NCBI RefSeq assembly: GCF_015706575.1
Contig: NW_024037061.1
Span: 915,897-979,896 of the forward strand
Length of the DNA stretch: 64,000 nt
Source of the DNA: Patiria miniata
Lineage: Eukaryota
Reading direction: 5' to 3'
The notes under the pieces are model-generated. The model worked only from the letters and a program-made list of their open reading frames with translations. It had not been told where the DNA came from and searched no databases. Made by a program: the position numbers and the translations under genes. The stretch's first letter is position 1. Each line of letters starts with the position of its first letter. Shown here piece after piece: positions 20,430 through 46,789 of the stretch.

Positions 20430-23400
20430 TAAAAACTTTTATTATCGGCGTAATTTATAGAGAAGTTAAACTTTATAGACAAACGGCGAGGTTTTGCAAT
20501 TGTGCATGTTATTAAGAAAAAGTTAGGGGGAAAAAATCTGAATTTTCTCATAATATTTTCAATTTTTTGGCCAAGATCGTGCAAATTTACATGTTTGAAT
20601 ATTGAAACATGGTTCTCATGCCTCAAAAAGCATTTCTGAGTATTTTGAAGAAAAGTCAATTTTTGGGCCAAATTCATCAAAAAAGTAAGGTTTACCCCTT
20701 ACATTTTTTCATAATTTTGATGAAAAATAAAATTTCTTCAAACTTGCTAAAAAGATGCACCAGAGTCTATAAAACACGGTCCTACTCTATATACTGGACA
20801 AATGTGACTTTCAAAGGAAAAAAGAATGCGTCAAAAATTGTGTGGAAAACGTCAAATTTATCTTTTTTCCCCTAATAATTTTATTATAACGTCCGAAATT
20901 TGAGGTAAAATAGGTCAAATATACGATATGCATTTCTGAGTAATTTGGAGAAAATTAATTTTTTGGCCAAAATTGACAAAAAAGTAAGGCTATAAACCCC
21001 TTACATTTTTTTTTCAAATTTGGCTGAAAAATTAAATTTCTTGAAACTTGCTGGGAAGATGCCTCGGGGTCCCTAGAACACGTTTCCACTCTTACATTGG
21101 ACAGATATGCCTTTCAAAAGGAAATATAACGTCGAAAATTTGAGGTAAAATTGGTCAAATTTATGAATTTTTTTCACAATAATGCCACAATTTCGGCCAT
21201 AATTTAGCCAATTTTGCCGGTCTGAATATTAAACCGTGTTCCCAAAGCCTTAATATGCATTGCTGAGTAGTTTGGAGAAAATTCATTTTTTGGCCAAAAT
21301 TGAAAAAAAAGTAAGGCTAACCCCTTACATTTTTTTTCAAATTTGGCTGAAAAATGAAATTTCTTGAAACTTGCTGGGAAGATGCCTCAGGGTCCCTAGA
21401 ACACGTTTCCACTCTTACATTGGACAGATATGCCTTTCAAAAGGAAATATAACGTCGAAAATTTGAGGTAAAATTGGTCAAATTTATGATTTTTTTTCCC
21501 AATAATGCCACAATTCCGGCCAAAATTTAGCCAATTTTGCCGGTCTAAATATTAAATCGTGATCCCAACACCTTATTATGCATTACTGAGTAGTTTGGAG
21601 AAAATTCATTTTTTGGCAAAAATTGAAAAAAAGTAAGGCTAACCCCTTACATTTTTTTCAAAGTTGGCTGAAAAATGAAATTTCTTGCAACTTGCTGGGA
21701 AGATGCATCAGGGTCCCTAGAACACGTTTCCACTCTTACATTGGACAGATATGCCTTTCAAAAGGAAATATAACGTCGAAAATTTGAGGTAAAATTGGTC
21801 AAATTTATGAATTTTTTAACCAATAATGCCACAATTTCGGCACAAATTTAGCCAATTTTGCCGGTCTGAATATTAAATCGTGATCCCAAAGCCTTTATAT
21901 GCATTTCTGAGTAGTTTGGAGAAAATTCATTTTTTGGCCAAAATTGAAAAAAAAGTAAGGCTAACCCCTTACATTTTTTTCAAATTTGGCTGAAAAATGA
22001 AATTTCTTGAAACTTGCTGGGAAGATGCCTCAGGGTCCCTAGAACACGTTTCCACTCTTACATTGGACAGATATGCCTTTCAAAAGGAAATATAACGTCC
22101 ACAATTTGAGGTAAAATTGGTCAAATTTATGATTTTTGTTCCCAATAATGCCACAATTTCAGCCGAAATTGAGCCAATTTTGCCGGTCTGAATATTAAAT
22201 CGTGATCCCAAAGCCTTAATATGCATTTCTGAGTAGTTTGGAGAAAATTCATTTTTTGGCCAAAATTGAAAAAAAAGTAAGGCTAACCCCTTACATTTTT
22301 TTCAAATTTGGCTGAAAAATGAAATTTCTTGAAACTTGCTGGGAAGATGCCTCAGGGTCCCTAGAACACGTTTCCACTCTTACATTGGACAGATATGCCT
22401 TTCAAAAGGAAATATAACGTCGAAAATTTGAGGTAAAATTGGTCAAATTTATGATTTTTGTTCCCAATAATGACACAATTTCAGCCAAAATTGAGCCAAT
22501 TTTGCCGGTCTGAATATTAAATCGTGATCCCAAAGCCTTAATATGCATTTCTGAGTAGTTTGGAAAAAATTCATTTTTTGGCCAAAATTGAAAAAAAAGT
22601 AAGGCTAACCCCTTACATTTTTTTCAAATTTGGCTGAAAAATGAAATTTCTTGAAACTTGCTTGGAAGAGGCCTCAGGGTCCCTAGAACACGTTTCCACT
22701 CTTACATTGGACAGATATGCCTTTCGAAAGGAAATTTAACGTCCACAATTTGAGGTAAAATTGGTCAAATTTATGATTTTTGTTCCCAATAATGCCACAA
22801 TTTCAGCCGAAATTGAGCCAATTTGCCGGTCTGAATATTAAATCGTGATACCAAAGCCTTTATATGCATTTCTGAGTAGTTTGGAGAAAATTCATTTTTT
22901 GGCCAAAATTGAAAAAAAAGGAAGGCTAACCCCTTACATTTTTTTCAAATTTGGCTGAAAAATGAAATTTCTTGAAACTTGCTGGGAAGATGCCTCAGGG
23001 TCCCTAGAACACGTTTCCACTCTTACATTGGACAGATATGCCTTTCAAAAGGAAATATAACGTCCACAATTTGAGGTAAAATTGGTCAAATTTATGATTT
23101 TTGTTCCCAATAATGCCACAATTTCAGCCGAAATTCAGCCAATTTTGCCGGTCTGAATATTAAATCGTGATCCCAAAGCCTTAATATGCATTTCTGAGTA
23201 GTTTGGAGAAAATTCATTTTTTGGCCAAAATTGAAAAAAAAGTAAGCCTAACCCCTTACATTTTTTTCAAATTTGGCTGAAAAATGAAATTTCTTGAAAC
23301 TTGCTGGGAAGATGCCTCAGGGTCCCTAGAACACGTTTCCACTCTTACATTGGACAGATATGCCTTTCAAAAGGAAATATAACGTCGAAAATTTGAGGTA

Positions 23401-26400
23401 AAATTGATCAAATTTATGATTTTTGTTCCCAATAATGACACAATTTCAGCCAAAATTGAGCCAATTTTGCCGGTCTGAATATTAAATCGTGATCCCAAAG
23501 CCTTAATATGCATTTCTGAGTAGTTTGGAAAAAATTCATTTTTTTGGCCAAAATTGAAAAAAAAGTAAGGCTAACCCCTTACATTTTTTTCAAATTTGGC
23601 TGAAAAATGAAATTTCTTGAAACTTGCTTGGAAGAGGCCTCAGGGTCCCTAGAACACGTTTCCACTCTTACATTGGACAGATATGCCTTTCAAAAGGAAA
23701 TATAACGTCGAAAATTTGAGGTAAAATTGGTCAAATTTATGAATTTTTTTCACAATAATGCCACAATTTCGGCCATAATTTAGCCAATTTTGCCGGTCTG
23801 AATATTAAACCGTGTTCCCAAAGCCTTAATATGCATTGCTGAGTAGTTTGGAGAAAATTCATTTTTTGGCCAAAATTGAAAAAAAAGTAAGGCTAACCCC
23901 TTACATTTTTTTTCAAATTTGGCTGAAAAATGAAATTTCTTGAAACTTGCTGGGAAGATGCCTCAGGGTCCCTAGAACACGTTTCCACTCTTACATTGGA
24001 CAGATATGCCTTTCAAAAGGAAATATAACGTCGAAAATTTGAGGTAAAATTGGTCAAATTTATGATTTTTTTTCCCAATAATGCCACAATTCCGGCCAAA
24101 ATTTAGCCAATTTTGCCGGTCTAAATATTAAATCGTGATCCCAACACCTTATTATGCATTACTGAGTAGTTTGGAGAAAATTCATTTTTTGGCAAAAATT
24201 GAAAAAAAGTAAGGGTAACCCCTTACATTTTTTTCAAAGTTGGCTGAAAAATGAAATTTCTTGCAACTTGCTGGGAAGATGCATCAGGGTCCCTAGAACA
24301 CGTTTCCACTCTTACATTGGACAGATATGCCTTTCAAAAGGAAATATAACGTCGAAAATTTGAGGTAAAATTGGTCAAATTTATGAATTTTTTAACCAAT
24401 AATGCCACAATTTCGGCACAAATTTAGCCAATTTTGCCGGTCTGAATATTAAATCGTGATCCCAAAGCCTTTATATGCATTTCTGAGTAGTTTGGAGAAA
24501 ATTCATTTTTTGGCCAAAATTGAAAAAAAAGTAAGGCTAACCCCTTACATTTTTTTCAAATTTGGCTGAAAAATGAAATTTCTTGAAACTTGCTGGGAAG
24601 ATGCCTCAGGGTCCCTAGAACACGTTTCCACTCTTACATTGGACAGATATGCCTTTCAAAAGGAAATATAACGTCCACAATTTGAGGTAAAATTGGTCAA
24701 ATTTATGATTTTTGTTCCCAATAATGCCACAATTTCAGCCGAAATTGAGCCAATTTTGCCGGTCTGAATATTAAATCGTGATCCCAAAGCCTTAATATGC
24801 ATTTCTGAGTAGTTTGGAGAAAATTCATTTTTTGGCCAAAATTGAAAAAAAAGTAAGGCTAACCCCTTACATTTTTTTCAAATTTGGCTGAAAAATGAAA
24901 TTTCTTGAAACTTGCTGGGAAGATGCCTCAGGGTCCCTAGAACACGTTTCCACTCTTACATTGGACAGATATGCCTTTCAAAAGGAAATATAACGTCGAA
25001 AATTTGAGGTAAAATTGATCAAATTTATGATTTTTGTTCCCAATAATGACACAATTTCAGCCAAAATTGAGCCAATTTTGCCGGTCTGAATATTAAATCG
25101 TGATCCCAAAGCCTTAATATGCATTTCTGAGTAGTTTGGAAAAAATTCATTTTTTGGCCAAAATTGAAAAAAAAGTAAGGCTAACCCCTTACATTTTTTT
25201 CAAATTTGGCTGAAAAATGAAATTTCTTGAAACTTGCTTGGAAGAGGCCTCAGGGTCCCTAGAACACGTTTCCACTCTTACATTGGACAGATATGCCTTT
25301 CGAAAGGAAATTTAACGTCCACAATTTGAGGTAAAATTGGTCAAATTTATGATTTTTGTTCCCAATAATGCCACAATTTCAGCCGAAATTGAGCCAATTT
25401 GCCGGTCTGAATATTAAATCGTGATACCAAAGACTTTATATGCATTTCTGAGTAGTTTGGAGAAAATTCATTTTTTGGCCAAAATTGAAAAAAAAGGAAG
25501 GCTAACCCCTTACATTTTTTTCAAATTTGGCTGAAAAATGAAATTTCTTGAAACTTGCTGGGAAGATGCCTCAGGGTCCCTAGAACACGTTTCCACTCTT
25601 ACATTGGACAGATATGCCTTTCAAAAGGAAATATAACGTCGAAAATTTGAGGTAAAATTGGTCAAATTTATGATTTTTGTTCCCAATAATGCCACAATTT
25701 CAGCCGAAATTCAGCCAATTTTGCCGGTCTGAATATTAAATCGTGATCCCAAAGCCTTAATATGCATTTCTGAGTAGTTTGGAGAAAATTCATTTTTTTG
25801 CCAAAATTGAAAAAAAAGTAAGCCTAACCCCTTACATTTTTTTCAAATTTGGCTGAAAAATGAAATTTCTTGAAACTTGCTGGGAAGATGCCTCAGGGTC
25901 CCTAGAACACGTTTCCACTCTTACATTGGACAGATATGCCTTTCAAAAGGAAATATAACGTCGAAAATTTGAGGTAAAATTGATCAAATTTATGATTTTT
26001 GTTCCCAATAATGACACAATTTCAGCCAAAATTGAGCCAATTTTGCCGGTCTGAATATTAAATCGTGATCCCAAAGCCTTAATATGCATTTCTGAGTAGT
26101 TTGGAAAAAATTCATTTTTTTGGCCAAAATTGAAAAAAAAGTAAGGCTAACCCCTTACATTTTTTTCAAATTTGGCTGAAAAATGAAATTTCTTGAAACT
26201 TGCTTGGAAGATGCCTCAGGGTCCCTAGAACACGTTTCCACTCTTACATTGGACAGATATGCCTTTCAAAAGGAAATATAACGTCGAAAATTTGAGGTAA
26301 AATTGATCAAATTTATGATTTTTGTTCCCAATAATGACACAATTTCAGCCAAAATTGAGCCAATTTTGCCGGTCTGAATATTAAATCGTGATCCCAAAGC

Positions 26401-29400
26401 CTTAATATGCATTTCTGAGTAGTTTGAAAAAAAATCATTTTTTTGGCCAAAATTGAAAAAAAAGTAAGGCTAACCCCTTACATTTTTTTCAAATTTGGCT
26501 GAAAAACGAAATTTCTTGAAACTTGCTTGGAAGAGGCCTCAGGGTCCCTCTTACATTGGACAGATATGCCTTTCAAAAGGAAATATAACGTCCACAATTT
26601 GAGGTAAAATTGGTCAAATTTATGATTTTTGTTCCCAATAAATTACATTGGACAGATATGCCTTTCAAAAGGAAATATAACGTCCACAATTTGAGGTAAA
26701 ATTGGTCAAATTTATGATTTTTGTTCCCAATAATGCCACAATTTTAGCCGAAATTTAGCCAATTTTGCCGGTCTGAATATTAAATCGTGATCCCAAAGCC
26801 TTTATATGCATTTCTGAGTAGTTTGGAGAAAATTCAATTTTTTGGCCAAAATTGAAAAAAAAATAAGGCTAACCCCTTACAATTTTTTCAAATTTGGCTG
26901 AAAAATGAAATTTCTTGAAACTTGCTGGGAAGATGCCTCAGGGTCCCTAGAACACGTTTCCACTCTTACATTGGACAGATATGCCTTTCAAAAGGAAATA
27001 TAACGTGGAAAATTTGAGGTAAAATTGATCAAATTTATGATTTTTGTTCCCAATAATGACACAATTTCAGCCAAAATTGAGCCAATTTTGCCGGTCTGAA
27101 TATTAAATCGTGATCCCAAAGCCTTAATATGCATTTCTGAGTAGTTTGGAGAAAATTCATTTTTTGGCCAAAATTGAAAAAAAAGTAAGGCTAACCCCTT
27201 ACATTTTTTTCAAATTTGGCTGAAAAATGAAATTTCTTGAAACTTGCTTGGAAGAGGCCTCAGGGTCCCTAGAACACGTTTCCACTCTTACATTGGACAG
27301 ATATGCCTTTCAAAAGGAAATATAACGTCCACAATTTGAGGTAAAATTGGTCAAATTTATGATTTTTGTTCCCAATAATGCCACAATTTCAGCCGAAATT
27401 GAGCCAATTTTGCCGGTCTGAATATTAAATCGTGATCCCAAAGCCTTTATATGCATTTCTGAGTAGTTTGGAGAAAATTCATTTTTTGGCCAAAATTGAA
27501 AAAAAAGTAAGGCTAACCCCTTACATATTTTTCAAATTTGGCTGAAAAATGAAATTTCTTGAAACTTGCTGGGAAGATGCCTCAGGGTCCCTAGAACACG
27601 TTTCCACTCTTACATTGGACAGATATGCCTTTCAAAAGGAAATATAACGTCCACAATTTGAGGTAAAATTGATCAAATTTATGATTTTTGTTCCCAATAA
27701 TGACACAATTTCAGCCAAAATTGAGCCAATTTTGCCGGTCTGAATATTAAATCGTGATCCCAAAGCCTTAATATGCATTGCTGAGTAGTTTGGAGAAAAT
27801 TCATTTTTTGGCCAAAATTGAAAAAAAAGTAAGGCCTTACATTTTTTTCAAATTTGGCTGAAAAATGAAATTTCTTGAAACTTGCTTGGAAGAGGCCTCA
27901 GGGTCCCTAGAACACGTTTCCACTCTTACATTGGACAGATATGCCTTTCAAAAGGAAATATAACGTCGAAAATTTGAGGTAAAATTGATCAAATTTATGA
28001 TTTTTGTTCCCAATAATGCCACAATTTCAGCCAAAATTGAGCCAATTTTGCCGGTCTGAATATTAAATCGTGATCCCAAAGCCTTAATATGCATTGCTGA
28101 GTAGTTTGGAGAAAATTCATTTTTTTGCCAAAATTGAAAAAAAAGTAAGGCTAACCCCTTACATTTTTTTCAAATTTGGCTGAAAAATGAAATTTCTTGA
28201 AACTTGCTTGGAAGATGCCTCAGGGTCCCTAGAACACGTTTCCACTCTTACATTGGACAGATATGCCTTTCAAAAGGAAATATAACGTCCACAATTTGAG
28301 GTAAAATTGGTCAAATTTATGATTTTTGTTCCCAATAATGCCACAATTTCAGCCGAAATTTAGCCAATTTTGCCGGTCTGAATATTAAATCGTGATCCCA
28401 AAGCCTTTATATGCATTTCTGAGTAGTTTGGAGAAAATTCATTTTTTGGCCAAAATTGAAAAAAAAGTAAGGCTAACCCCTTACATTTTTTTCAAATTTG
28501 GCTGAAAAATGAAATTTCTTGAAACTTGCTTGGAAGAGGCCTCAGGGTCCCTAGAACACGTTTCCACTCTTACATTGGACGGATATGCCTTTCAAAAGGA
28601 AATATAACGTCCACAATTTGAGATAAAATTGGTCAAATTTATGATTTTTGTTCCCAATAATGCCACAATTTCAGCCGAAATTGAGCCAATTTTGCCGGTC
28701 TGAATATTAAATCGTGATCCCAAAGCCTTTATATGCATTTCTGAGTAGTTTGGAGAAAATTCATTTTTTTGCCAAAATTGAAAAAAAAGTAAGGCTAACC
28801 CCTTACATTTTTTTCAAATTTGGCTGAAAAATGAAATTTCTTGAAACTTGCTTGGAAGATGCCTCAGGGTCCCTAGAACACGTTTCCTCTCTTACATTGG
28901 ACAGATATGCCTTTCAAAAGGAAATATAACGTCCACAATTTGAGGTAAAATTGGTCAAATTTATGATTTTTGTTCCCAATAATGCCACAATTTCAGCCGA
29001 AATTTAGCCACTTTTGCCGGTCTGAATATTAAATCGTGATCCCAAAGCCTTTATATGCATTTCTGAGTAGTTTGGAGAAAATTCATTTTTTGGCCAAAAT
29101 TGAAAAAAAAGTAAGGCTAACCCCTTACATTTTTTTCAAATTTGGCTGAAAAATGAAATTTCTTGAAACTTGCTGGGAAGATGCCTCAGGGTCCCTAGAT
29201 GACGTTTCCACTCTTACATTGGACAGATATGCCTTTCAAAAGGAAATATAACGTCGAAAATTTGAGGTAAAATTGATCAAATTTATGATTTTTGTTCCCA
29301 ATAATGCCACAATTTCAGCCAAAATTGAGCCAATTTTGCCGGTCTGAATATTAAATCGTGATCCCAAAGCCTTAATATGCATTTCTGAGTAGTTTGGAGA

Positions 29401-32400
29401 AAATTCATTTTTTTTGCCAAAAGTAAAGCTAACCCCTTACATTTTTTTCAAATTTGGCTGAAAAATGAAATTTCTTGAAACTTGCTTGGAAGATGCCTCA
29501 GGGTCCCTAGAACACGTTTCCACTCTTACATTGGACAGATATGCCTTTCAAAAGGAAATATAACGTCCACAATTTGAGGTAAAATTGGTCAAATTTATGA
29601 TTTTTGTTCCCAATAATGCCACAATTTCAGCCGAAATTTAGCCAATTTTGCCGGTCTGAATATTAAATCGTGATCCCAAAGCCTTTATATGCATTTCTGA
29701 GTAGTTTGGAGAAAATTCATTTTTTTGCCAAAATTGAAAAAAAAGTAAGGCTAACCCCTTACATTTTTTTCAAATTTGGCTGAAAAATGAAATTTCTTGA
29801 AACTTGCTTGGAAGATGCCTCAGGGTCCCTAGAACACGTTTCCTCTCTTACATTGGACAGATATGCCTTTCAAAAGGAAATATAACGTCCACAATTTGAG
29901 GTAAAATTGGTCAAATTTATGATTTTTGTTCCCAATAATGCCACAATTTCAGCCGAAATTTAGCCAATTTTGCCGGTCTGAATATTAAATCGTGATCCCA
30001 AAGCCTTTATATGCATTTCTGAGTAGTTTGGAGAAAATTCATTTTTTGGCCAAAATTGAAAAAAAAGTAAGGCTAACCCCTTACATTTTTTTCAAATTTG
30101 GCTGAAAAATGAAATTTCTTGAAACTTGCTTGGAAGAGGCCTCAGGGTCCCTAGAACACGTTTCCACTCTTACATTGGACGGATATGCCTTTCAAAAGGA
30201 AATATAACGTCCACAATTTGAGGTAAAATTGGTCAAATTTATGATTTTTGTTCCCAATAATGCCACAATTTCAGCCGAAATTGAGCCAATTTTGCCGGTC
30301 TGAATATTAAATCGTGATCCCAAAGCCTTTATATGCATTTCTGAGTAGTTTGGAGAAAATTCATTTTTTTGCCAAAATTGAAAAAAAAGTAAGGCTAACC
30401 CCTTACATTTTTTTCAAATTTGGCTGAAAAATGAAATTTCTTGAAACTTGCTGGGAAGAGGCCTCAGGGTCCCTAGAACACGTTTCCACTCTTACATTGG
30501 ACGGATATGCCTTTCAAAAGGAAATATAACGTCCACAATTTGAGGTAAAATTGGTCAAATTTATGATTTTTGTTCCCAATAATGCCACAATTTCAGCCGA
30601 AATTGAGCCAATTTTGCCGGTCTGAATATTAAATCGTGATCCCAAAGCCTTAATATGCATTTCTGAGTAGTTTGGAGAAAATTCATTTTTTGGCCAAAAT
30701 TGAAAAAAAAGTAAGGCTAACCCCTTACATTTTTTTCAAATTTGGCTGGAAAATGAAATTTCTTGAAACTTGCTTGGAAGAGGCCTCAGGGTCCCTAGAA
30801 CACGTTTCCACTCTTACATTGGACAGATATGCCTTTCAAAAGGAAATATAACGTCGAAAATTTGAGGTAAAATTGATCAAATTTATGATATTTGTTCCCA
30901 ATAATGCCACAATTTCAGCCGAAATTTAGCCAATTTTGCCGGTCTGAATATTAAATCGTGATCCCAAAGCCTTAATATGCATTTCTGAGTAGTTTGGAGA
31001 AGATTCATTTTTTGGCCAAAATTGAAAAAAAAGTAAGGCTAACCCCTTACATTTTTTTCAAATTTGGCTGAAAAATGAAATTTCTTGAAACTTGCTGTGA
31101 AGATGCCTCAGGGTCCCTAGATGACGTTTCCACTCTTACATTGGACAGATATGCCTTTCAAAAGGAAATATAACGTCGAAAATTTGAGGTAAAATTGATC
31201 AAATTCATGATTTTTTTTTCCCAATAATGCCACAATTTCAGCCAAAATTGAGCCAATTTTGCCGGTCTGAATATTAAATCGTGATCCCAAAGCCTTAATA
31301 TGCATTTCTGAGTAGTTTGGAGAAAATTCATTTTTTTTTGCCAAAAGTAAAGCTAACCCCTTACATTTTTTTCAAATTTGGCTGAAAAATGAAATTTCTT
31401 GAAACTTGCTGTGAAGATGCCTCAGGGTCCCTAGAACACGTTTCCACTCTTACATTGGACAGATATGCCTTTCAAAAGGAAATATAACGTCCACAATTTG
31501 AGGTAAAATTGGTCAAATTTATGAATTTTTTTCCAAATAATGCCATAATTTCGGCCAAAATTTAGCCAATTTTTCCGGTCTGAATATTAAATCGTGATCC
31601 CAAAGCCTTGATATGCATTGCTGAGCAGTTTGGAGAAAATTCATTTTTTGGCCAAAATTGAAAAACAAGTAAGGCTAACTCCTTACATTTTTTTCAAATT
31701 TGGCTGAAAAATGAAATTTCTTGAAACTTGCTTGGAAGATGCCTCAGGGTCCCTAGAACACGTTTCCACTCTTACATTGGACAGATACGCCTTTCAAAAG
31801 GAAATAATTTATAACGTCGCAAATTTGAGGTAAAATTGGTCAAATTTATGATTTTTTTACCAAATAATGCCACAATTTCGGCCAAAATTTAGCCAATTTT
31901 GCCGGTCTGAATATTAAATCGTGATCCCAAAGCCTCGATATGCATTGCTGAGTAGTTGGGAGAAAATTCATTTTTTTTGCCAAAAGTAAAGCTAACCCCT
32001 TACATTTTTTTCAAATTTGGCTGAAAAATGAAATTTCTTGAAACTTGCTGGGAAGATACCTCAGGGTCCCTAGAACACGTTTCCAATCTTACATTGGACA
32101 GATATGCTTTTCAAAAAGAAATATAACGTCGAAAATTTGAGGTAAAATAGGTCAAATTTATGATTTTTTTACGCATAATGCCACAATTTCGGCCAACATT
32201 TAGCCAATTTTGCCGGTCTGAATATTAAATCGTGATCCCTAAGCCTCGATATGCATTGCTGAGTAGTTGGGAGAAAATTCATTTTTTTTGCCAAAAGTAA
32301 AGCTAACCCCTTACATTTTTTTCAAATTTGGCTGAAAAATGAAATTTCTTGAAACCTGCTGGGAAGATGCATCAGGGTCCCTAGAACACGTTTCCACTCT

Positions 32401-32700
32401 TACATTGGACAGATATGCCTTATATTTTTTGTGTGAATTTTTTGATGAAAAATGTAATTTCTTCAAACTTGCTAAAAAGAAAGGAAAAACAGTCAAATGT
32501 ATTAATTGATTTCGCAATTATTTCAAAATGTAGGAGAAAAATTGCAAAATTTGCTTGTGTGAATATTGAATAAGGGTTATCAAGCCTTCAAAGACAATTC
32601 AAGCAATTTCGAGAAATACCAATTTTTTTTGGCCAAAATTCATCAAAAATGTATTTTCTTTGGCAGAAAATTGTATATCTTAAAACTCGGAAAATCGGAA
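20430..32700. repeat. Satellite array, 322-bp unit x ~37 (core 20880-32430, degenerate edges)
   Basis: Landmark ccccttacat recurs at 21321, 21643, 21965, 22287 ... (period 322). Copies are ~95% identical. One copy is truncated at ~26520-26640. Confidence 0.95.
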
Positions 32701-36370: not shown

Positions 36371-36720
36371 ATTGGATAACGATATCACACCACTACTTGT
36401 TATGGTCAACCAACAGACCAATCCTCACTGACCTTTCATAAGACCAAGGTAGTTAGCAGTGCTTGTAGCACGCACCTGATTGGACAGTAAGTTCAGACAA
36501 AACCAAATCTTCACACAATTGACCAATCCTCACAGGCCATCTAGAAGCTGCAGGTAGTGTGGTGCCTGCAATTATAGCACGCCCCTGATTGGACATTAAG
36601 TCCAAAACAAGGCAAATCTCCACACAATTGACCAATCCTCACAGGCCATCTAGAAGCTGCAGGTAGTAGGGTGCCTGGCCCAGTTGTCTGGCTAGCTTGT
36701 TGGTCTTGAACATGATTGGA
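36371..36720. repeat. ~110-bp tandem repeat (~3.2 units, each starting c.tgattggaca) overlapping the REV3L stop codon and 3'UTR
   Basis: Units start at 36371, 36471, 36589 and 36711. The segment caattgaccaatcctcacaggccatctagaagctgcaggtag occurs twice. Confidence 0.8.
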
Positions 36721-36782
36721 CAGTCTAAAGACACACAGCTAGATGTGTCTTGTTCCTTGAAGTTGCAGCAGCTAGCGCAAAT
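36639..36782 (-). CDS. REV3L: REV3L terminal coding exon (CysB / Fe-S cluster region ICASCCNFKEQDTSSCVSLDCPIMFKTNKLARQLGQAPYYLQLLDGL, stop TGA at 36639-36641)
   Basis: Acceptor ttgtacag|. It matches the vertebrate C-terminus ICKNCTGCF...CVSLNCPVLFKLSRVNRELSKAPYLRQLL. The stop lies inside a ~110-bp tandem repeat. Confidence 0.88.
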   Translation of the reverse strand: MCASCCNFKEQDTSSCVSLDCPIMFKTNKLARQLGQAPYYLQLLDGL

Positions 36783-36967
36783 CTGTACAAACAATAATCC
36801 AAATTTCCAAATAATGGTAATAATTGGACCCATTGGACTAAATTGCATTACCTTTCATTTGTACCTGTACGATCTTTAATCCAAGTCAGATTTTTGATAA
36901 TAATTTTGTTGGTTACTTTTGGGATAAATGCAAATGATCCTACAAGCCATAAAAGTAAGCAACCAAC

Positions 36968-37129
36968 CTTGGCCATGTCTTGCTGGATTGACTGCCACTG
37001 CTGGACTCGGCTCAAGAGGGCAGTAGCCGTGACTTGACCCTTGGCCTTACAGTCACTACACAGGCTCTCCTTGGTAACCTTCTCGCAGATGACGCAGTTA
37101 AGACTGACGAAGTACTGCGAGATAGTTCC
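36968..37129 (-). CDS. REV3L: REV3L C-terminal zinc-finger (CysA) exon (GTISQYFVSLNCVICEKVTKESLCSDCKAKGQVTATALLSRVQQWQSIQQDMAK)
   Basis: Acceptor ccggcag| and donor AAG|GTTGGT. It matches vertebrate GTISQYFTTLHCPVCDDLTQHGICSKCRSQPQ. Confidence 0.88.
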
Positions 37130-37852
37130 CTGCCGGAAAAAGACAACAGTACTCTCTGTAAAAACCCCACCCGATGGTGTTTTGAGAAAATTATCATCTG
37201 CATGCTGTTAGTTTTCTTTCTTGACCCTAACCCTGCCAGACACAACACAGTGCATCAGGTGTCAAAGTCTGTGGGACCTTGCTGCACTGAGCCATCAACA
37301 CCAGTGCATAAACGGTCAATTCTGAGACAATGAGAGCTAGTCCCATTGAATAATGCCACAGTTGTATCCTGCTGCAGTCGGTGACCACAGACTCTGAGGC
37401 AGTTTGGCCTTGAGATTTCTGACCTGATACATCTTGCTACACTCGGCAGGCTTGTTATTATATCAAATGTGAATGTAGGACGTTGGAGAACAAAATCAGG
37501 ATAAAAGTAGGACTTTTGTGGGCTTTCAGGAGTAGTTTTCGTCGATACTCACCCATGTCCACAGCATCATAAGCCTCATTTGGCATGTTCTGTACTCACA
37601 ACACTTTTGCTCCATCCTCAACTAAGCTCTTGGAAGAACAGTTGCAGTACTCCTGCGCCCAAGCCCTTCATTGTGTGATTTACATATGACAGTGTGTAAC
37701 ACTGTTATGAAAAATATTCAAACAGATTTCATTTTCGGAGTTGTGGGGGGAAAGTAGGAATTTCAAGAAAAAAGTAGGAAAGCACAGTGAAAAACAAATT
37801 GGAAAACTAGGACAAGTAGGAACAATTGAAAGCCTGCAGTCATAAAACCGAC

Positions 37853-38020
37853 CTTTTTCCCTGGTGTCCCAAGCTGGTGGAGTGTATTAACCCTATGCCA
37901 CCTAGGGAGTTCCTGGTACCACTGCATGGTGTCCACGCCCAATAGGCCAAAGACTCGGTTCAGGGTGGGTACCAGTTGACGGGTCAGGTAATAGGTGGTG
38001 TTCAGTCGCAGGCTAGGATC
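37853..38020 (-). CDS. REV3L: REV3L exon (DPSLRLNTTYYLTRQLVPTLNRVFGLLGVDTMQWYQELPRWHRVNTLHQLGTPGKK)
   Basis: Acceptor ttttaag| and donor AAG|GTCGGT. It matches vertebrate DPTLRLNATYYITKQILPPLARIFSLIGIDVFSWYHELPR. Confidence 0.88.
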
Positions 38021-38099
38021 CTTAAAAGCGAGAAAAGAATTGTTATTAATTTATGATGGAATTCTGAATTAAGAAAATGTAAATAACCATACTGGTTCC

Positions 38100-38325
38100 A
38101 GTTCGTGTCGGAAGATGTGATAACACGCACTGGCTGTTTTTATACACAGGCACGGCTGACGGGTTAAGACGTCAAAATTGCCTCGATACGCCTCCGGGTG
38201 ACGTCTAAACACGCTAATCCTTCAGGTGGGACTCGAACCCACGACCTCCTGCTTACTAGTGCAGACGTCTTACAACTCGACCACCGAGCTTGCTACGGTC
38301 AGCTGGCTGGTCCAAATCTCCCCGA
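38100..38325 (-). mobile_element. Inverted copy of the 13640-13945 element (antisense tRNA-like head)
   Basis: Reverse-complement match. The minus strand shows GGTCGTGGGTTCGAGTCCCACC T-loop-like sequence. Confidence 0.5.
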
Positions 38326-38500
38326 CACAATGGTTTACAGTTCTTGCCATGTTAGGTGGTTTCAAACCCTGCCGGGTTACATGGGACTTGTGTTCTCAGG
38401 CAAGACATTTTACCACAATTGTCTTCTCTATCCAGGAGTCCAACTGGGTACCTGAGAAGGTAGCTGCTGCAAAAACTGGTCTCATGGCCTGACGCTTTGA
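38325..38500 (+). mobile_element. Second copy of the SINE body seen at 15880-16050
   Basis: Similarity to 15860-15960 (ggtttcaaaccctgccgggttacatgggacttgtgttctcaggcaagacattttacc versus gtggttcgtgggttcgaatcctgacggggaccatggtgcttgtgctcttgagcaaggcactttacc). Confidence 0.5.
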
Positions 38501-38663
38501 GACCAGTAAATTAAGTGCTATAATATGAACACCAAATTATTATTATTAAGAAAATTCATCATCCGAGGGTAAATTCTGTTAATGACTAAAACAATGTTGA
38601 TGATAAAACAAACCAGATAGTTCTAATTATTCATCCAGATCAGGAATTGGGAGTCTGCTTTAC

Positions 38664-38790
38664 CTGTAGAACTTGACCAGGGGTACGTACTAGCTGTATG
38701 AGGGGTAACCCCGGGCTACCGTGTACGATGACGTAGGGTACGCGCTGACCAACGCGAGGCTCGGCACGGCGATCGACTGCAAGAAGCCGT
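38664..38790 (-). CDS. REV3L: REV3L exon (RLLAVDRRAEPRVGQRVPYVIVHGSPGLPLIQLVRTPGQVLQ)
   Basis: Acceptor caccccag| and donor CAG|GTAAAG. It matches vertebrate RKMLTYDRRSEPQVGERVPYVIIYGTPGVPLIQLVRRP. Confidence 0.88.
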
Positions 38791-38933
38791 CTGGGGTGAA
38801 ATGAAAAAAAGGTAGATCAAAATTAGTTCCGCATATACTGTTGCCTTTTGCGGACGAACCAGCACTCGTAGGTTGTGTCCCCCCTACCACAGATACTTTC
38901 AAAGCGATCCCAAAGTACCGTCTCACGGCTTAC

Positions 38934-39124
38934 CTGCTGATTTCCAGTGCCGGTACGCAGGCTCCCGGCCGGTACGTATGCTTGCCGCGATACTCCTTGG
39001 CGAAGACCAGGTCCTGCATGGTGGCCTGGCCGTCCAGAATCTTCTGGAATTGTTTCTGGACGTACTGCTTGATCTGGGACACGTCCCGCGTGGTGAAGAG
39101 GATCTTCAGGGCTCTCTCAAGAAT
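38934..39124 (-). CDS. REV3L: REV3L exon (ILERALKILFTTRDVSQIKQYVQKQFQKILDGQATMQDLVFAKEYRGKHTYRPGACVPALEIS)
   Basis: Acceptor ccttccag| and donor AG|GTAAGC. It strongly matches vertebrate KILFETRDISLIKQYVQRQ...FIFAKEYRG. Confidence 0.9.
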
Positions 39125-39229
39125 CTGGAAGGAGAAAGATTGCAGCTACTTAAAAGTGGAAAAACAAGGACTTCAGCACTGAAATATAGTCTCAGTTTGA
39201 GTACTGTGCCAAAGCTTGTCACTCGACTT

Positions 39230-39890
39230 AATGACACTAGATGACTTATGATAGACTTGTGATGTCTTGTGAATGATTTGTGATGACATTTGACTGACTT
39301 TTGATGACTTGTGCTGGCTTGTGATTGACCTGTGATGACTTTTGATGTGATATGAAAACTTGAGTGATTAATGATGACTTGTGATGGATTTGTGATGACT
39401 TGTGATTTACGTGTGATATACTTGTGATGGCTTGTGGACTTGTGATTGACTTGTGATTGACCTGTGATTGACTTGTGATGACTTTTGATTTACTTGTGTG
39501 GACTTGTGATTGTTTGTGATGACTTGTGATGGACTTGTGATGGACAAGTGGTGGACAAGTGGTGGACTTGTGATGGACTTGTGATGGACTTGTGATGGAC
39601 TTGTGATGGACTTGTGATGGACATGTGATGGACTTGTGATGGACTTGTGATTGAGTTGTGATGGACTTGTGATTGACTTGTAATTGACTTGTAATTGACT
39701 TGTGATAACTTACGTTTATTTGTGATTGACTTGTGATTGACTTATGACTGACTTGTGATTGACCTGTGATTGACTTGTGATGGACTTGTGATCGACTTGT
39801 GATGACTTGTGATTGACTTGTAATTGACTTGTGATTGACTTGGGATTGACTTGGGATTGACTTGGGATTGACTTGAGCAACGACAAGTCA
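39230..39890. repeat. Minisatellite (tgacttgtgat / ggacttgtgat)n, ~60 copies, in a REV3L intron
   Basis: A direct 11-bp period is visible throughout. It is the same motif as 4790-5045. Confidence 0.9.
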
Positions 39891-39960
39891 ATGACAAGTC
39901 AATCACACCAAAAATACTGGTTTCCCGACAGAGCCACACAATTTGTCACGGAGAAAATAC

Positions 39961-40098
39961 CTTGCCAACCGCAGGACAGGAATCTCTGCGTACTGTCTCA
40001 ATCCCCTTAGCATCAAACTCGGGCTCAACCTGGTCAGGCGATTCGTAGCTGTAGCCAACGTAACGCTTCTTGGATTGCAAGACACACGGATGATAAAC
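39961..40098 (-). CDS. REV3L: REV3L exon (VYHPCVLQSKKRYVGYSYESPDQVEPEFDAKGIETVRRDSCPAVGK)
   Basis: Acceptor ctgcag| and donor AAG|GTATTT. The KKRYVGY motif is conserved. Confidence 0.9.
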
Positions 40099-40619
40099 CT
40101 GCAGAATGCAAAAGATTATCAGAAATCATAATAAGTGACAAAATACTTTTCCGGTTAAAGACACAGAGGTTCATTAGCATGTATCCCAAAAGTAGACTAC
40201 CACATATATTATAAAAAAGCTTACTTGGATTAAAGATTGCACTGGTACTATAAACACCCCGTGAAATTATTCCATCTGGCTTGCTGTCATTTAGAAGAAA
40301 TCAAGAAATGTACGTGATTTCCAACGATCAGTCGATCGACAGATTTTTTGGAAATGAAGAGTGAAGAGACAAAATCGTACTGATCAAAAGGTTGTGCGTG
40401 GTTTTCACTGCTTTCTCGAAAAGTGTAATATCTACTGAGCTGAAACTTCAACAGGTTAGGTTCTGAACATTCTTCTTTGGATTTTGAGTGGTGTTTTTAT
40501 TTGAAACGAGCAAAATGCATGAAAAGCAAATGATCCTATATGCCTTTAAGGTTGACAGGGTGGATGAGGGAATGTTATATTTGATCAGCAATGGGACAGG
40601 ATGTCCACTTATTACAGAC

Positions 40620-40734
40620 CTTTTCCAGTTTGAGTTTGACCGGTTTGGGATTGGCAGCCGTGACAGCATCTCGGATCTCCCTCCCGACCTCAAAGGCACG
40701 CTCCTTGCTCGCTCCTTCAACCAACACAAACATG
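40620..40734 (-). CDS. REV3L: REV3L exon (MFVLVEGASKERAFEVGREIRDAVTAANPKPVKLKLEK)
   Basis: Acceptor ttcacag| and donor AAG|GTCTGT. It matches vertebrate MFVLLKGATKEQSFKIGQEIAEAVTATNPKPVKLKFEK. Confidence 0.9.
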
Positions 40735-40859
40735 CTGTGAAGAAAAAACGGAAGCAAATCAGTAAGTAAAGTAAGTAACATCTGACATGAGCCAACTCAT
40801 CACGCCGGCGTTTTTCTCCGGTTTCTTAGACATGAAACGACTGAGATACTTGTATTCCC

Positions 40860-41030
40860 CCTGGATGGGATACCAGCTAATGCCGGTACCCATTCATACT
40901 CCTGGGTGGAGAGAGGCAAGGGGGGTGAAGTGGCTTGCCCAAGGACACACATATGGCCAGCGGCTGGATTCGAACCCCTGACTCTCTGATTACGAGTCAC
41001 AAACCCTAACCACTAGACCACACTCCCCCA
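40860..41030 (-). mobile_element. tRNA-derived SINE, uninterrupted copy (same family as 2395-2845)
   Basis: Minus strand reads GGGGGAGTGTGGTCTAGTGGTTAGGGTTTGTGACTCGTAATCAGAGAGTCAGGGGTTCGAATCCAGCCGCTGGCC, then a body collinear with 2395-2524. Confidence 0.6.
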
Positions 41031-41438
41031 TGGCAATCCCATGGCAGTCCCATGGCAATCCCATGGCAATCCTATGGCAATCCCATGGCAATCCCATGGC
41101 AATCCCATGGCAATCCCATGGCAGTCCCACATGAATCTATGAACCCACCTGTCCGTGTCCCCATAAACCACTCTAACCACTAGACCACACTCCCCCATGG
41201 CAATCCCATGGCAATCCCATGGCAATCCCATGGCAATCCCATGGCAATCCCATGGCAATCCAATGGCAATCCCATGGCAATCCCATGGCAATCCCATGGC
41301 AATCCCATGGCAATCCCATGGCAGTCCCACAGGAATCTATGTACCCACCTGTCCGTGTCCCCATAAACCACTCTAACCACTAGACGACCCTCCCCCATGG
41401 CAATCCCATAGCAGTCCCACAGGAATCTATGTACCCAC
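41013..41438. repeat. Composite tandem structure: (catggcaatc)n 10-bp minisatellite blocks (41020-41130, 41195-41330) alternating with two extra copies of the 3' end plus donor of the REV3L motif-C exon
   Basis: The segment cccacaggaatctatg(a/t)acccacct(g/a)tccgtgtccccataaaccactct occurs at 41126-41175, 41326-41375 and in the real exon at 41418-41466. Confidence 0.8.
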
Positions 41439-41548
41439 CTATCCGTGTCCCCATAAACCACTCTGGCTCCCCACTTCTTAGTGCTTTCCACCATATGAAT
41501 GGCTCTCTCCAGTGTCTCACGTCCCTTTCTCACCACGCTGTCACCAAC
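41439..41548 (-). CDS. REV3L: REV3L polymerase motif C exon (VGDSVVRKGRETLERAIHMVESTKKWGARVVYGDTDS)
   Basis: Acceptor ctgacag| and donor AG|GTGGGT. The catalytic YGDTDS motif is conserved. Confidence 0.9.
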
Positions 41549-42243
41549 CTGTCAGACAAAAAGCAAAAACGACGGAAAGTCAAACAGTTGGCACACTCTC
41601 TTCTTTGCACAAAATTATACATAAATTATTTTTTTTTAAATGGCTAATTTAAAGCTACAGCCCATCATTTGCAGCTATCCAAAAAGTAACTGACGTAATT
41701 ATTGCTGTAAAGCATACTTGGTTTTATAGATAGTGATGGGACTAAACTCCCTGTGAAATTATTCTTTCTGGCAAGCTTTCATTTTGAAAAAAACAACGAA
41801 AGAAGGCCATTTCCAATGATGGGTCTAAAGAAGCTTTCTTGGAAATTTCCGTTAATAGTTCGTTTTAAATTCGGCGAAGCGCGCGCAAGCGTTGACAAGA
41901 TGCACACGCGCGCGCAGTTGCTGTAATTCGTCGGTTCAGTGCGCGACATCGCATAGCTGCAATCAGCTCAGTGAGAACGTGTCTCAGACGCTGAATTCAG
42001 GCCCAATTCAAAAACATGACTCAACAACTTTGATTTGAAATCGAGATCCTAGATTATTGTTTTCTCGGAACATACAGCATTCACTGAGATAAAACCTCAT
42101 CAGGTTAGTTGTTCAGCACCCTTCTTAAGATTTTGAGCACTTTTGTTGCTTCAAACGAACAAAATGCACAAATTACAAATGGACGCTATCTTTATATTAT
42201 CCAAACCATGATGTTAACTAGTAGGGTCTGGTTTGGGACCTAC

Positions 42244-42351
42244 CTCGATGCATGGCATTCGCCCAGAGAAGTTTGCCGATGTGTAGCCGTAGGTGACGTT
42301 GGCTATCAACTTAAGAGCCAGCTGTCGGCTGTTCAACATGCGATGTAGCGT
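42244..42351 (-). CDS. REV3L: REV3L polymerase motif B exon (TLHRMLNSRQLALKLIANVTYGYTSANFSGRMPCIE)
   Basis: Acceptor ctcaacag| after a long pyrimidine tract, and donor GAG|GTAGGT. The KxxxN(S/V)xYG motif B is conserved. Confidence 0.9.
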
Positions 42352-42691
42352 CTGTTGAGCAAGAATCAAAAACAAAAAAGTAAATACACCATGTATACAA
42401 AAAAAAGAAAACAAATAAATAAAAATACATATTTTGTCTTTGAATTATTACATTTCCAGCAGTACAAAAGGTTGTGCACTTTTGAATGAGACATCAGCCC
42501 AAAAAATAGAAAAATTGGCCCACGTTATATGTTATGGAAAAACTACTTAACAAAGTTTGAAATATTTGTGGTCCAAAAATAATCTTACAGGGTAGACTCG
42601 TTCCTGCCCCTTCTAGAAAAATGTGTTTTGATCCTTCTGTCAAAACCAAGTGTTAATGCAGTTCTGGGAGTAATCTGCTTCATTGTTTTAC

Positions 42692-42761
42692 CTTGTCATC
42701 CTTAAAGTCCTTGAGAGACTTCTTGACGATGAGACGGAGTTTGAGAATTTGCTCCAACATC
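42692..42761 (-). CDS. REV3L: REV3L exon (MLEQILKLRLIVKKSLKDFKDDK)
   Basis: Acceptor taaacgcag| and donor AAG|GTAAAA. It matches vertebrate MLEEILKTRFMVKQSMK. Confidence 0.82.
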
Positions 42762-43738
42762 CTGCGTTTAAATAAAAACATCACAGAAAGATATTTTATT
42801 GTTTACCCTCAATTCTTTTTAATCCTTATATGGTCGGCTGGCGTGTACCCATTCATAGGTGTGTAATCAATTGCAAACAAGCTGCGGACCTACTTCATGT
42901 ATATGGTAAATTGGGGGCAGTTTTTTCCAACCCTGGTCGGCCGACTAGCGTTAGAAATTGATACAAAAATACCACTTTTCTTGAAAAGGTCAGCACACCA
43001 GGTGCCATGATTTCACAGGATGCTTGAGACTATTATTCACTTACAGTCCAGTAAGGGTATGTCATGTAAATTTGGAAGTTTCGTTTTTAGATGTTTGCAA
43101 ATGTTGTATATTCCCTTTAATTCCACATTGAATTAAAATCTCAACTGTTATGAAATAAACAGAAGCTTTTTCAAATTGTATTTCATGAAGGCCGAGCCAA
43201 CAAATCGTGGCATATTTTGATTTTAGCCTAATGCCTGTCTCAATTCTATTCAGGACGAGTTTCGGACAAGTTGCGGACCTTGTGTTGGGTATAAGTTGCA
43301 GGATTCTGAGCAACTTCCCCGCAGTCTTCCCGCAATGAAGTGATCAATATTGGTGAGTCTAGCCGTTGCTCATGTAAATTTCTCCGGAACATGTCCGTGA
43401 CAAGTGCAGAGCTTCTTCAAGACAAAAAGAATCATTCTACCTTAACTCGTCCAGAATTCGTCCAAGTTATGAACTGAGTTGGGCCCCAAAATTCACACTT
43501 AGAGAAAAAAAGGTGATATTTAGTTTTTCTCTTGTGGTCCTCATTAAATCTAAACTCTATCACACCATGGTGGTTAAAGTTGCAAACAAGTTATCATTGT
43601 TTTTGTGAAGAGACCAAAAAATAGTTTTTAAGCGATACAACATTTCGCTCTCGGTGAGATATGATGCTTCAAAATGATATCATAAACAGATTGTTAAATG
43701 CAATGGTTTCTCAAACTGAATTCAGACAGCACACTTAC

Positions 43739-43882
43739 ATTGGTAGGACACCACGGCGGACACTGGGCTTGACAAACACGATGCCGTTGGGGGAGACGTG
43801 GAGGCTGTCAGACTGGTAGAGTTTCTTGAGTTGGGACACGGAGACAGACAGAGAGCCACATCCCAGGGCATACTCCCCACCA
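43739..43882 (-). CDS. REV3L: REV3L exon (GGEYALGCGSLSVSVSQLKKLYQSDSLHVSPNGIVFVKPSVRRGVLP)
   Basis: Acceptor ttcccaag| and donor AT|GTAAGT. It matches vertebrate ...ITVSPNGVAFVKPSVRKGVLP. Confidence 0.85.
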
Positions 43883-44229
43883 CTTGGGAAAAAAGACAAT
43901 TGAATTCAGTCTTACGAAAACAATTCATTTACTGAACTTCCCCAACTCACAAATTATAGAAGGTAAATTAAATGGAAAAAACCAAAAACCTAAAACAAGC
44001 TAAGGCAAACTTTAAGTAGAGTTGGCCCCAGAGCCCCAAAAATTCTATTCAATTGATTCAGAATGGTTATTTATTGGAAGTCATGCATCTGGTCGAATTC
44101 ACTGGTATAATGGGGTAATCCTATACAATAGCACTGCCCGGCTCACAGCTGACAGTCAGTTAATTAGTCAGTCAGTGCGTCTGTCAGTGAGGTACAGCGG
44201 ACTATAGAATGGCCCTCTCTGGGACCGGG

Positions 44230-45120
44230 AACAGTGACATTACGGGGTCATCCTATACAATAGCACCCTGGCTCACAGGGACAAGCAAAGGTGGCAGTAC
44301 AGGGTAATCCTATACAATAGCACTGCCCAGCTCACAAGTGACGGTCAGTTAGTGAGTCAGGGATTGACAAGCAAAAATGGCTTTACAGGGTTATCCTATA
44401 CAATAGCACTGCCCAGCTCACAAGTGACGGTCAGTTAGTGAGTCAGGGATTGACAAGCAAAAGTGGCGTTACAGTGTAATCCTATACAATAACACTGCCC
44501 AGCTCACAAGTGACGGTCAGTTAGTGAGTCAGGGATTGACAAGCAAAAATGGCGTTACAGTGTAATCCTATACAATAACACTGCCCGGCTCACAAGTGAC
44601 TGTCAGTTAGTGAGTCAGGGATTGACAAGCAAAAATGGCGTTACAGTGTAATCCTATACAATAGCACTGCCCGGCTCACAAGTGACAGTCAGTTAGTGAG
44701 TCAGGGATTGACAAGCAAAAATGGCGTTACAGGGTAATCCTATACAATAGCACTGCCCAGCTCACAAGTAACGGTCAGTTAGTGAGTCAGGGATTGACAA
44801 GCAAAAATGGCTTTACAGGGTTATCCTATACAATAGCACTGCCCGGCTCACAGGTGAGGGTCAGTTAGTGAGTCACGGATGGACAAGCAAAAATGGCATT
44901 ACAGGCGGGTTATCCTATACAATAGCACTGCCCGGCACACAAGTGACAGTCACTTAGTTAGTTGGTGTTCAGTCAGTGAATACAGCGGACTATAGGTTGG
45001 CCCTCTCGTGGGCCAGCAAAAGTGGCCTTAGGGGGTAATCCTATACAATAGCACTGCCCAGCTCACAACTGACAGTCACTTCGTCAGTGAGATAGTCAGT
45101 GACGTACAGCAGACTATAGG
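44230..45120 (+). repeat. 86-bp tandem repeat (~8-10 units) derived from the gggtaatcctatacaatagcactgccc interspersed element
   Basis: cctatacaat recurs at 44309, 44395, 44481, 44567 ... (period 86). A single-copy element head lies at 44060-44230. Confidence 0.85.
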
Positions 45121-45172
45121 CTGGCTGTTTGCATTTAAAATGAATGTGTAATTACAATCTGCACTGTCTTAC

Positions 45173-45334
45173 TTGGCAATGTGTTCTAAGCGTCCGAGGC
45201 ACGTAGAGTAGCAGTAGTTATAAGCAATCATCATGGTAGGATAGAGAGACTGGAAATCCAGCACGATGACAGGATCCTGATAGAAACGAGACTCAGGCTC
45301 CATGACCAACGGGATGCACTCCGGTGCCTTCATT
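45173..45334 (-). CDS. REV3L: REV3L polymerase motif A exon (MKAPECIPLVMEPESRFYQDPVIVLDFQSLYPTMMIAYNYCYSTCLG)
   Basis: Acceptor tgacgtag| and donor AA|GTAAGA. The family-B polymerase motif A (DxxSLYPS) is conserved. Confidence 0.9.
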
Positions 45335-45655
45335 CTACGTCACGGAAAATGAAAAATGCTCCCAAATACAGCCATTACTTGTATCAGTTCAGAGGATCAT
45401 TTGCTTTTGTGTGTTTTGTTTGTTTCCAATAATTACACCACTCCAAATCGGATGTTCAAAACCTGTTAAAGTTTCAGCTCGGTGAATATTACACTTTTTC
45501 GAGAAAACTGTGGAAAACCATGCACAACCTTTCCATCAAAAGATTTGTATTCCCATAGATCCGTAATGCTAGCCCCAGGTAAACAAGAATTCTTCTTGTA
45601 AATTTAGACAGACGTGACATTTTTTTTAGTTTACTGTATGCAATTTTATCTTTAC

Positions 45656-45738
45656 CTTGAGCGTTGTTGCACGCTGGGTGACATGGCAACGTAGTTCTGT
45701 GGTTTCGCTGTCCTCAACATCATGGACTCAACGCGAAA
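45656..45738 (-). CDS. REV3L: REV3L exon (FRVESMMLRTAKPQNYVAMSPSVQQRS)
   Basis: Acceptor tgtgtacag| and donor AG|GTAAAG. It matches vertebrate YRVESMMLRIAKPMNYIPVTPSVQQRSQ. Confidence 0.88.
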
Positions 45739-46641: not shown

Positions 46642-46789
46642 CTGCAACAAAAAAGGTCAACATTGAAACAAGTCGATATAAATTTCTTGCCATTTTGAGA
46701 AAAAAAATGGTTTTCTCTAGTAGAAAACATGGTCGAAGCTTCGGTACTTTGGGCCAGGCGGGAAAAAATGAACTTTCGGCAACACAGAA

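Follow-up and report, generated by a model that had tools for sequence, protein, structure and literature searches.

A 322-bp tandem array between two convergent genes of Patiria miniata, SCI1-like and REV3L, is probably a young, non-coding satellite-type repeat

How does a block of near-identical tandem repeats come to fill most of the space between two genes, and does it do anything there? This question is raised by a 64,000-nucleotide stretch of the sea star Patiria miniata (RefSeq assembly GCF_015706575.1, contig NW_024037061.1, positions 915,897 to 979,896 of the forward strand), here called the window, in which an array of a 322-bp unit lies between a gene for a small basic SCI1-like protein and REV3L, the gene for the catalytic subunit of DNA polymerase zeta. 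We put the probability at about 80% that the array is a non-coding satellite-type repeat that was born in the spacer between the two genes after the split of Patiria and Acanthaster and has been homogenised in place. The array is real, the age of its units is graded, and the orthologous spacer of Acanthaster planci does not contain it. As in satellite DNA, the monomers stand head to tail, the unit is non-coding, and a homogenised interior with divergent ends bears the marks of multi-monomer exchange.

An earlier note on this DNA had described a satellite of ~37 copies and 11.9 kb at 20430-32700 and had named a tandem-repeat search as a check. Its description was essentially right. Tandem Repeats Finder (TRF) returned a single array with a period of 322, 35.6 copies, 90% matches, 3% indels and a score of 17,846 (Table 1). 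A profile built from 34 well-behaved monomers and searched with nhmmer extended this array over degenerate edge units to a full span of 20533-32689, that is 12.2 kb or ~38 unit-equivalents, while no unit was detected with it at 20430-20533. When the consensus was compared with the 64-kb window by BLAST, full-length 322-bp units were found back to back, all within 20630-32473, and neither BLAST nor nhmmer revealed a copy of the unit elsewhere in the window. The array region has a G+C content of 34% and is free of Ns.

Adjacent monomers share a mean identity of 96.3%, and 70% of the consensus columns are invariant by per-column conservation. Central monomers are 97-99.7% identical to the consensus. 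The values are lower for the monomers near the edges (94.5% for m1; 91.6%, 94.2% and 90.1% for m33 to m35) and lowest for the outermost recognisable unit, m0, with ~65-79%. Because identity drops from the centre to both ends, the edge units are older and less homogenised, and this gradient bears out the degenerate older units that the earlier note had seen on either side of the array.

The interior carries traces of much younger events. Two successive blocks of eight units each (21067-23642 and 23643-26218) align without gaps and differ at 7 positions, corresponding to 99.73% identity, and their monomers pair in register from m2, which equals m10, through m8, which closely resembles m16. This duplication of an 8-monomer block is very recent, and its degree of identity indicates that amplification is recent or ongoing and that multi-unit exchange persists. 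Other monomers are near-identical though non-adjacent (m20/m29, m24/m29 and m25/m28), and informative sites resolve two main variant haplotypes that form a mosaic, with the older variant type at both array ends. Monomer m18 is aberrant in length. It had been taken for an internally deleted copy at ~26520-26640, and 15 bp are indeed missing from it (AGAACACGTTTCCAC, at ~26551). However, it is not merely deleted: within the monomer, 92 bp are also perfectly duplicated in tandem (26551-26642 and 26643-26733), which accounts for its length of 399 bp.

The earlier note's warning of an assembly hazard is a sensible one. Arrays of near-identical units are difficult to assemble, and the array, or at least its size and the 8-unit duplication, could in principle be an artefact of over-expansion, collapse or the mis-joining of haplotypes. 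The near-identity of the two 2,576-bp blocks, with just 7 differing sites, would be in line with such an error, and an excess of transversions together with many 1-bp homopolymer indels resembles partial consensus error. On the other hand, the array contains no Ns and its flanks are collinear with those of A. planci. Moreover, the haplotype mosaic, the shared indels, the graded edges and the unique 92-bp duplication form a consistent structure beyond what an assembler would invent. We therefore regard an assembly artefact as quite unlikely.

The comparison with A. planci bears directly on the age of the array. Both species share the same synteny of three genes, but the spacer between the SCI1-like gene and REV3L measures 7.75 kb in A. 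planci as opposed to 18.1 kb from stop codon to stop codon in P. miniata, where the array takes up 12.2 kb; the A. planci spacer is thus ~10 kb shorter. The profile of the 322-bp unit had no match in the syntenic A. planci locus (best E = 0.35), and TRF found no tandem repeat above a few dozen bases there. Alignable blocks between the two species comprise only the exons and pieces of the REV3L 3' untranslated region (UTR), with identities of 67-87%. Since the syntenic spacer of A. planci is devoid of the repeat, the array appears to be lineage-specific. Judged from these two loci, it would have been gained after the Patiria/Acanthaster split, the alternative of a loss in Acanthaster being less parsimonious. 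Recent amplification or concerted evolution, as suggested in the earlier note, is supported by the repeat-free and shorter A. planci spacer, the homogeneous centre with its divergent edges, the 8-monomer duplication and the near-identical non-adjacent monomers.

Wider searches returned no relatives of the unit. In metagenome contigs a single match was obtained, a 21-mer shared by chance with a bacterial contig rich in GC, and collections of prokaryotic-genome and viral contigs yielded none. A full-text literature search with oligonucleotides of the unit and for '322 bp' satellites gave no match, and a literature search for sea-star satellite DNA produced nothing relevant.

Does the unit encode anything? 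Short open reading frames (ORFs) of 41-75 amino acids (aa) recur in each unit, as would be expected if genes were clustered here in tandem, whether protein-coding or for transfer RNAs (tRNAs), 5S RNA, small nuclear RNAs or histones. However, the unit length equals 3n+1, stops interrupt every frame and no ORF is longer than 75 aa. A Pfam scan of the recurrent ORFs was without match, and a pseudo-protein translated from a trimer in six frames matched none of 5.8 billion protein clusters in any frame. Neither an RNA family nor a tRNA was found at 20533-32689 by Rfam at the gathering threshold and ARAGORN. Over the entire window, Rfam matches at this threshold were confined to the tRNA-like heads of three short interspersed nuclear elements (SINEs) outside the array, in agreement with ARAGORN. 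A tandem gene cluster is effectively refuted by the frame, Pfam, protein, Rfam and ARAGORN evidence combined, and the sequence gives no sign of a gene-like function.

What the unit does contain is a conspicuous palindrome. Every unit harbors a hairpin in which two 48-nt arms, 85% complementary, flank a 6-nt loop, and the consensus gives minus-strand self-matches in every unit in BLAST. Folded as RNA, the hairpin reaches -56.6 kcal/mol (z = -10.5 compared to shuffles), and the whole 322-bp unit folded as DNA has a z of -5.8. The ~220 bp outside the hairpin include two 29-nt direct subrepeats spaced 52 bp, and a 16-nt motif, TTTYRGCCRAAATTGA, is common to the hairpin arms and the 29-nt subrepeats in both orientations. 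The sub-repeats that the earlier note had read within the unit were all recovered, namely TTTTGGCCAAAATTGA, TTTCAGCCRAAATTGA and the inverted copy TCAAATTTGGCTGAAA, in addition to the 29-nt pair. Of 12 distinct indel events among monomers, eight lie within the hairpin, whose share of the unit is 32% (binomial P = 0.014), so that the palindrome together with A/T homopolymer runs seems to be the main hotspot of length changes. Inverted repeats that form a foldback characterise miniature inverted-repeat transposable elements, or MITEs, and foldback transposons, and the 48/6/48-nt arms provide such a structure in every unit.

A hairpin of this stability could be functional. The array might be a hairpin-RNA locus giving rise to endogenous small interfering RNAs (siRNAs), microRNA (miRNA)-like RNAs or PIWI-interacting RNAs (piRNAs), or a hairpin or cruciform terminator or insulator between the convergent genes. 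Transcription, for example by read-through from these genes, would yield ~36 long hairpins for processing, and the array is placed exactly between the two convergent 3' ends. A lenient Rfam search with two units gave sub-threshold matches to miRNA precursors across the hairpin with E-values down to 5e-6. However, these matches score 30-39 bits compared to gathering scores of 67-195, they occur on both strands and they belong to unrelated, mostly plant families; the best one, MIR9563, reached 39.2 bits where its gathering score is 90. They are consistent with a generic similarity of long A/U-rich hairpins rather than with membership.

Base pairing in the hairpin likewise shows little sign of being maintained. 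In an RNAalifold analysis of 33 copies, which are too alike for a strong test, the covariation term was +0.3, with one compensated pair and many broken ones. Compensation is lacking both for a deletion of 9-10 bp in the left arm, seen in four copies, and for a G>T change shared by six, and the hairpin is the site where indels accumulate instead of being protected from change. Within the low power of the test, nothing points to selection for pairing. Membership in a miRNA or other hairpin-RNA family found no support, as no match reached the Rfam gathering threshold and covariation did not back the pairing. In addition, the orthologous A. planci spacer works without this hairpin. A functional hairpin-RNA or terminator locus is thus very unlikely in our view. 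Equally slim is the chance that the ~36 hairpin copies at the point of convergence of REV3L and the SCI1-like gene act as an siRNA- or piRNA-like source, or that they block read-through or transcription-replication conflict through cruciforms or heterochromatin. If an siRNA source or a read-through block were real, the array would represent a young lineage-specific regulatory spacer at its birth, with the empty site in Acanthaster as a natural control.

The same architecture raises the possibility that an inserted non-autonomous transposon, such as a MITE, a pearl/DTC84-like element, a Helentron or a foldback element, carried the array as its internal tandem-repeat cargo. The array would then have arrived largely pre-formed or have grown from the internal repeats of the element. 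The 48/6/48 inverted repeat and the motif-sharing subrepeats of the unit would fit this origin, as would the transposon-like neighbours (a SINE ending at 18952 and a MITE-like inverted repeat at 19666-20138) and the lack of the array in the orthologous A. planci spacer. Moreover, tandem repeats borne by such elements are familiar from marine invertebrates and from Drosophila (PMC3879986, PMC7492417, PMC4079207). However, the edges fade through degenerate units on both sides and have no defined termini, and the two flanks, when compared, shared neither terminal inverted repeats nor long terminal repeats (LTRs) nor an obvious cassette. Further copies of the unit are absent from the window, and ~37 units far exceed the 1-5 or so repeats that are typical of cargo arrays (PMC3879986). 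Termini of Helitrons or Helentrons, which would read TC at the 5' end and CTRR with a subterminal GC-rich hairpin at the 3' end, or a shared cassette, were not obvious in the flanks as read and compared, with no dedicated Helitron model run. An origin of the array as the cargo of an inserted element is therefore unlikely.

The window contains several other repeats. The only match between the two flanks is a dispersed 123-bp repeat (17715-17836 and 35467-35587, 81% identity, direct orientation) that lies ~2.7 kb from each array edge; this symmetry is probably coincidental, and no other sign of a composite element was seen. Three tRNA-derived SINE-like retroelements, all on the minus strand, combine a tRNA-like head (Ala-GGC in ARAGORN; 49-57 bits with Rfam tRNA) with a short tail and a run of poly(A). 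The SCI1-like gene has one of them in its 3' flank (18816-18952), and the others are located in REV3L introns (51771-51896 and 38222-38287). The former adjoins a dispersed repeat at 19035-19171 that matches 40412-40547 at 90%. The MITE-like inverted repeat, ~400 bp to the left of the array, has ~105-bp arms (19666-19766 and 20034-20138) that are 79% complementary and separated by a ~270-bp spacer; its sequence is unrelated to the 322-bp unit.

Returning to a satellite-type array that grew within the spacer, we propose the following course. The founding 322-bp unit would have been a composite of a foldback of ~102 bp and ~220 bp with the two 29-nt subrepeats. Such a make-up is typical of the remnant of a foldback or MITE-like transposon, and also of palindromic sequence that was duplicated locally. 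The seed, possibly one of these, may then have been amplified head to tail within the spacer. A transposon origin of the seed is suggested by its architecture, no dispersed copy of the unit or hairpin having been found in the window or at the A. planci locus. Unequal crossing-over, replication slippage and gene conversion could have maintained the homogeneity of the array, with the palindrome and the A/T homopolymer runs acting as the presumed main sites of insertion and deletion. As such exchange would homogenise the interior efficiently and the ends poorly, it would account for decayed edges around a centre that stays 97-99% identical. Most likely, the array is neutral or, at the most, serves as spacer DNA that forms chromatin.

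Some observations weigh against this account or parts of it. Variants within the array comprise 61 transversions and 28 transitions (transition/transversion ratio 0.46), an excess of transversions that is unusual for animal DNA, although errors in the consensus of a long-read assembly, in sequence rich in homopolymers, could be part of the cause. With respect to a transposon as the source of the seed, the edges of the array revealed neither a recognisable target-site duplication nor the terminus of a transposon, and solo copies of the unit or the hairpin were found neither in the 64-kb window nor at the A. planci locus. Two of ten CpG positions in the array are variable, which gives no clear methylation signal.

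Table 1. Positions of the array, its component features and the flanking genes in the window (a dot marks features given without strand).
Feature	Positions	Strand	Basis
SCI1-like small basic protein gene, 11 exons, 371 aa	10491..18519	+	HMMER, tblastn exon map, GT-AG splice model
Left degenerate edge	20533..20925	.	nhmmer, BLAST, sequence reading
Left-edge partial unit, model positions 228-321	20533-20624		nhmmer E = 0.0017
Old unit m0	20630-20878		nhmmer E = 7.7e-40, BLAST high-scoring segment pair with ~79% identity to the consensus
Left-edge short fragment	20885-20927		nhmmer E = 9.4e-07
Core tandem array, monomers m1-m36	20926..32421	.	TRF, monomer table, pairwise identity matrix
8-unit block tandem duplication, 2 x 2,576 bp	21067..26218	.	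lag-2576 mismatch scan, block BLAST
Representative intra-unit hairpin, consensus positions 17-118	22235..22336	.	repeat search, folding
Representative 29-nt direct subrepeat pair, consensus ~204-232 and ~256-284	22422..22502	.	repeat search
Aberrant monomer m18, 399 bp	26405..26803	.	TRF row 26551-26733, period 92, 2.0 copies, 100%; sequence reading
Right degenerate edge	32422..32689	.	nhmmer, sequence reading
Last unit, second half decayed, runs to 32587	32250-32587		nhmmer E = 3.4e-62
Weak extra partial unit, model positions 14-120	32602-32689		nhmmer E = 0.0071
REV3L (DNA polymerase zeta catalytic subunit)	36639..60498	-	Pfam, PDB matches, ORFs

The identity and the orientation of both flanking genes were verified, so that the array indeed separates two convergent 3' ends, as had been read from the sequence before. 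The 3' end of the SCI1-like gene faces the array, with its stop codon (18517-18519) 2.0 kb off. Its spliced product corresponds exactly to the P. miniata protein XP_038059539.1 (LOC119730624). An exon fragment with the motif KYFDQLSGSKAKSYFKRFVKKWNSGKL had relatives in HMMER searches, the best being XP_022100803.1 of A. planci, and the A. planci ortholog contains the domain SCI1_hairpin (PF27660). On the other side, the stop codon of REV3L (36639-36641) lies 3.95 kb from the array. Domain and structure searches for REV3L were based on hand-joined exon peptides. They yielded the Pfam matches DNA_pol_B (3.1e-97) and zf-C4pol (7.9e-12), and among PDB entries Rev3 of Pol zeta (2.8e-135) was matched better than Pol delta (1.4e-70). 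The polymerase domain is ~55-65% identical across many phyla, the REV3L entries among the matches being only of fragment length. The upper bound of the gene in Table 1 is uncertain, being set by where an unverified ORF on the minus strand ends; the gene may extend further or off the window.

REV3L has a giant exon at 53123-59008. A 10.3-kb contig of a metagenome assembly (ENA ERZ26222911), presumably DNA from another echinoderm-like animal, contains an ORF of 2,091 aa that is 36% identical to this exon. The REV3L stop codon is straddled by a 109-bp tandem duplication (36466-36677, 1.9 copies, 89%) that copies the last coding bases into the 3'UTR. The third gene of the syntenic group is located upstream at 2824-8958 on the plus strand, and its counterpart in A. 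planci is a gene of 379 aa. The N-terminal part of its product, for which no Pfam match was obtained, is four-transmembrane-like, and the C-terminal exon is Gln-rich and consists of 21-bp repeats (GSQQVGI heptad) at 8472-8800.

Tandem repeats other than the main array account for ~4 kb of the window. This general abundance of tandem repeats suggests that such arrays are normal for this genome. The 11-bp minisatellite TGACTTGTGAT occupies introns of two different genes (4827-5028, 18.6 copies, and 39242-39875, 59.6 copies), which suggests a dispersed minisatellite that is possibly carried by a transposon. Another 11-bp array, CCCATGGCAAT at 41027-41419, has a higher-order period of 200 bp and directly follows the exon encoding the YGDTD catalytic motif, in a REV3L intron. 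Further minisatellites in REV3L introns were found at 44280-44962 (86 bp x 7.9), 46857-47360 (29/58 bp x 17) and 59968-60303 (82 bp x 3.8).

The array constitutes a well-delimited and apparently undescribed tandem-repeat family in P. miniata, a model of developmental biology, and sea-star satellite DNA is barely represented in the searchable literature. With conserved single-copy genes on either side and a repeat-free site in Acanthaster, the locus could serve as a small and tractable case of the birth and homogenisation of a satellite in euchromatin. It is also a warning that assemblies, and the mapping of reads, may be unreliable in the vicinity of REV3L. The current understanding of repeats is not challenged by the array.

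Known systems resemble it in different respects. The euchromatic X-linked arrays of the Drosophila 1.688 (359-bp) satellite consist of ~360-bp monomers in short-to-medium arrays between or inside genes. As in the P. miniata array, turnover between species is rapid, with new arrays at new loci. In contrast, 1.688 additionally builds up heterochromatic blocks of megabase size, and its links to siRNAs and dosage compensation are documented. The families Cast1-Cast9 of Tribolium castaneum are euchromatic and satellite-like, with monomers of ~170/340 bp in gene-rich chromosome arms (PMC4675708). They share with the 322-bp array their non-coding nature and high sequence dynamics, and concerted evolution is stronger in their longer arrays (PMC4675708). 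However, they amount to thousands of monomers on many chromosomes, genome-wide, as opposed to one array seen in a 64-kb window, and they have no sequence similarity to the 322-bp unit.

Two further systems connect satellite-like arrays with transposons. In Drosophila virilis, the TIR-220 satellite arrays derive from the foldback transposon Tetris (PMC4079207). The likeness consists in a repeat of a few hundred base pairs that is associated with a foldback and forms satellite-like arrays of kilobase size (PMC4079207). The parent transposon is known for Tetris and its amplification took place in beta-heterochromatin, whereas no parent was found here and the array lies between expressed-type single-copy genes. 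The tandem-repeat MITEs and Helentrons of bivalves, described for DTC84/pearl (PMC3879986) and for Crassostrea gigas (PMC7492417), likewise have marine invertebrates as hosts, and their repeat units carry a palindrome that has been proposed as a hotspot of length change. These elements form short satellite-like arrays dispersed through euchromatin, with up to ~5 core repeats in the DTC84 arrays (PMC3879986), compared to ~37 units in P. miniata. The bivalve arrays are bounded by conserved flanking cassettes with inverted repeats and target-site duplications, while the P. miniata array has decaying edges and no recognisable cassette. All these examples stand beside the broader notion that nearly any piece of a transposon can become tandemised (PMC12628747).

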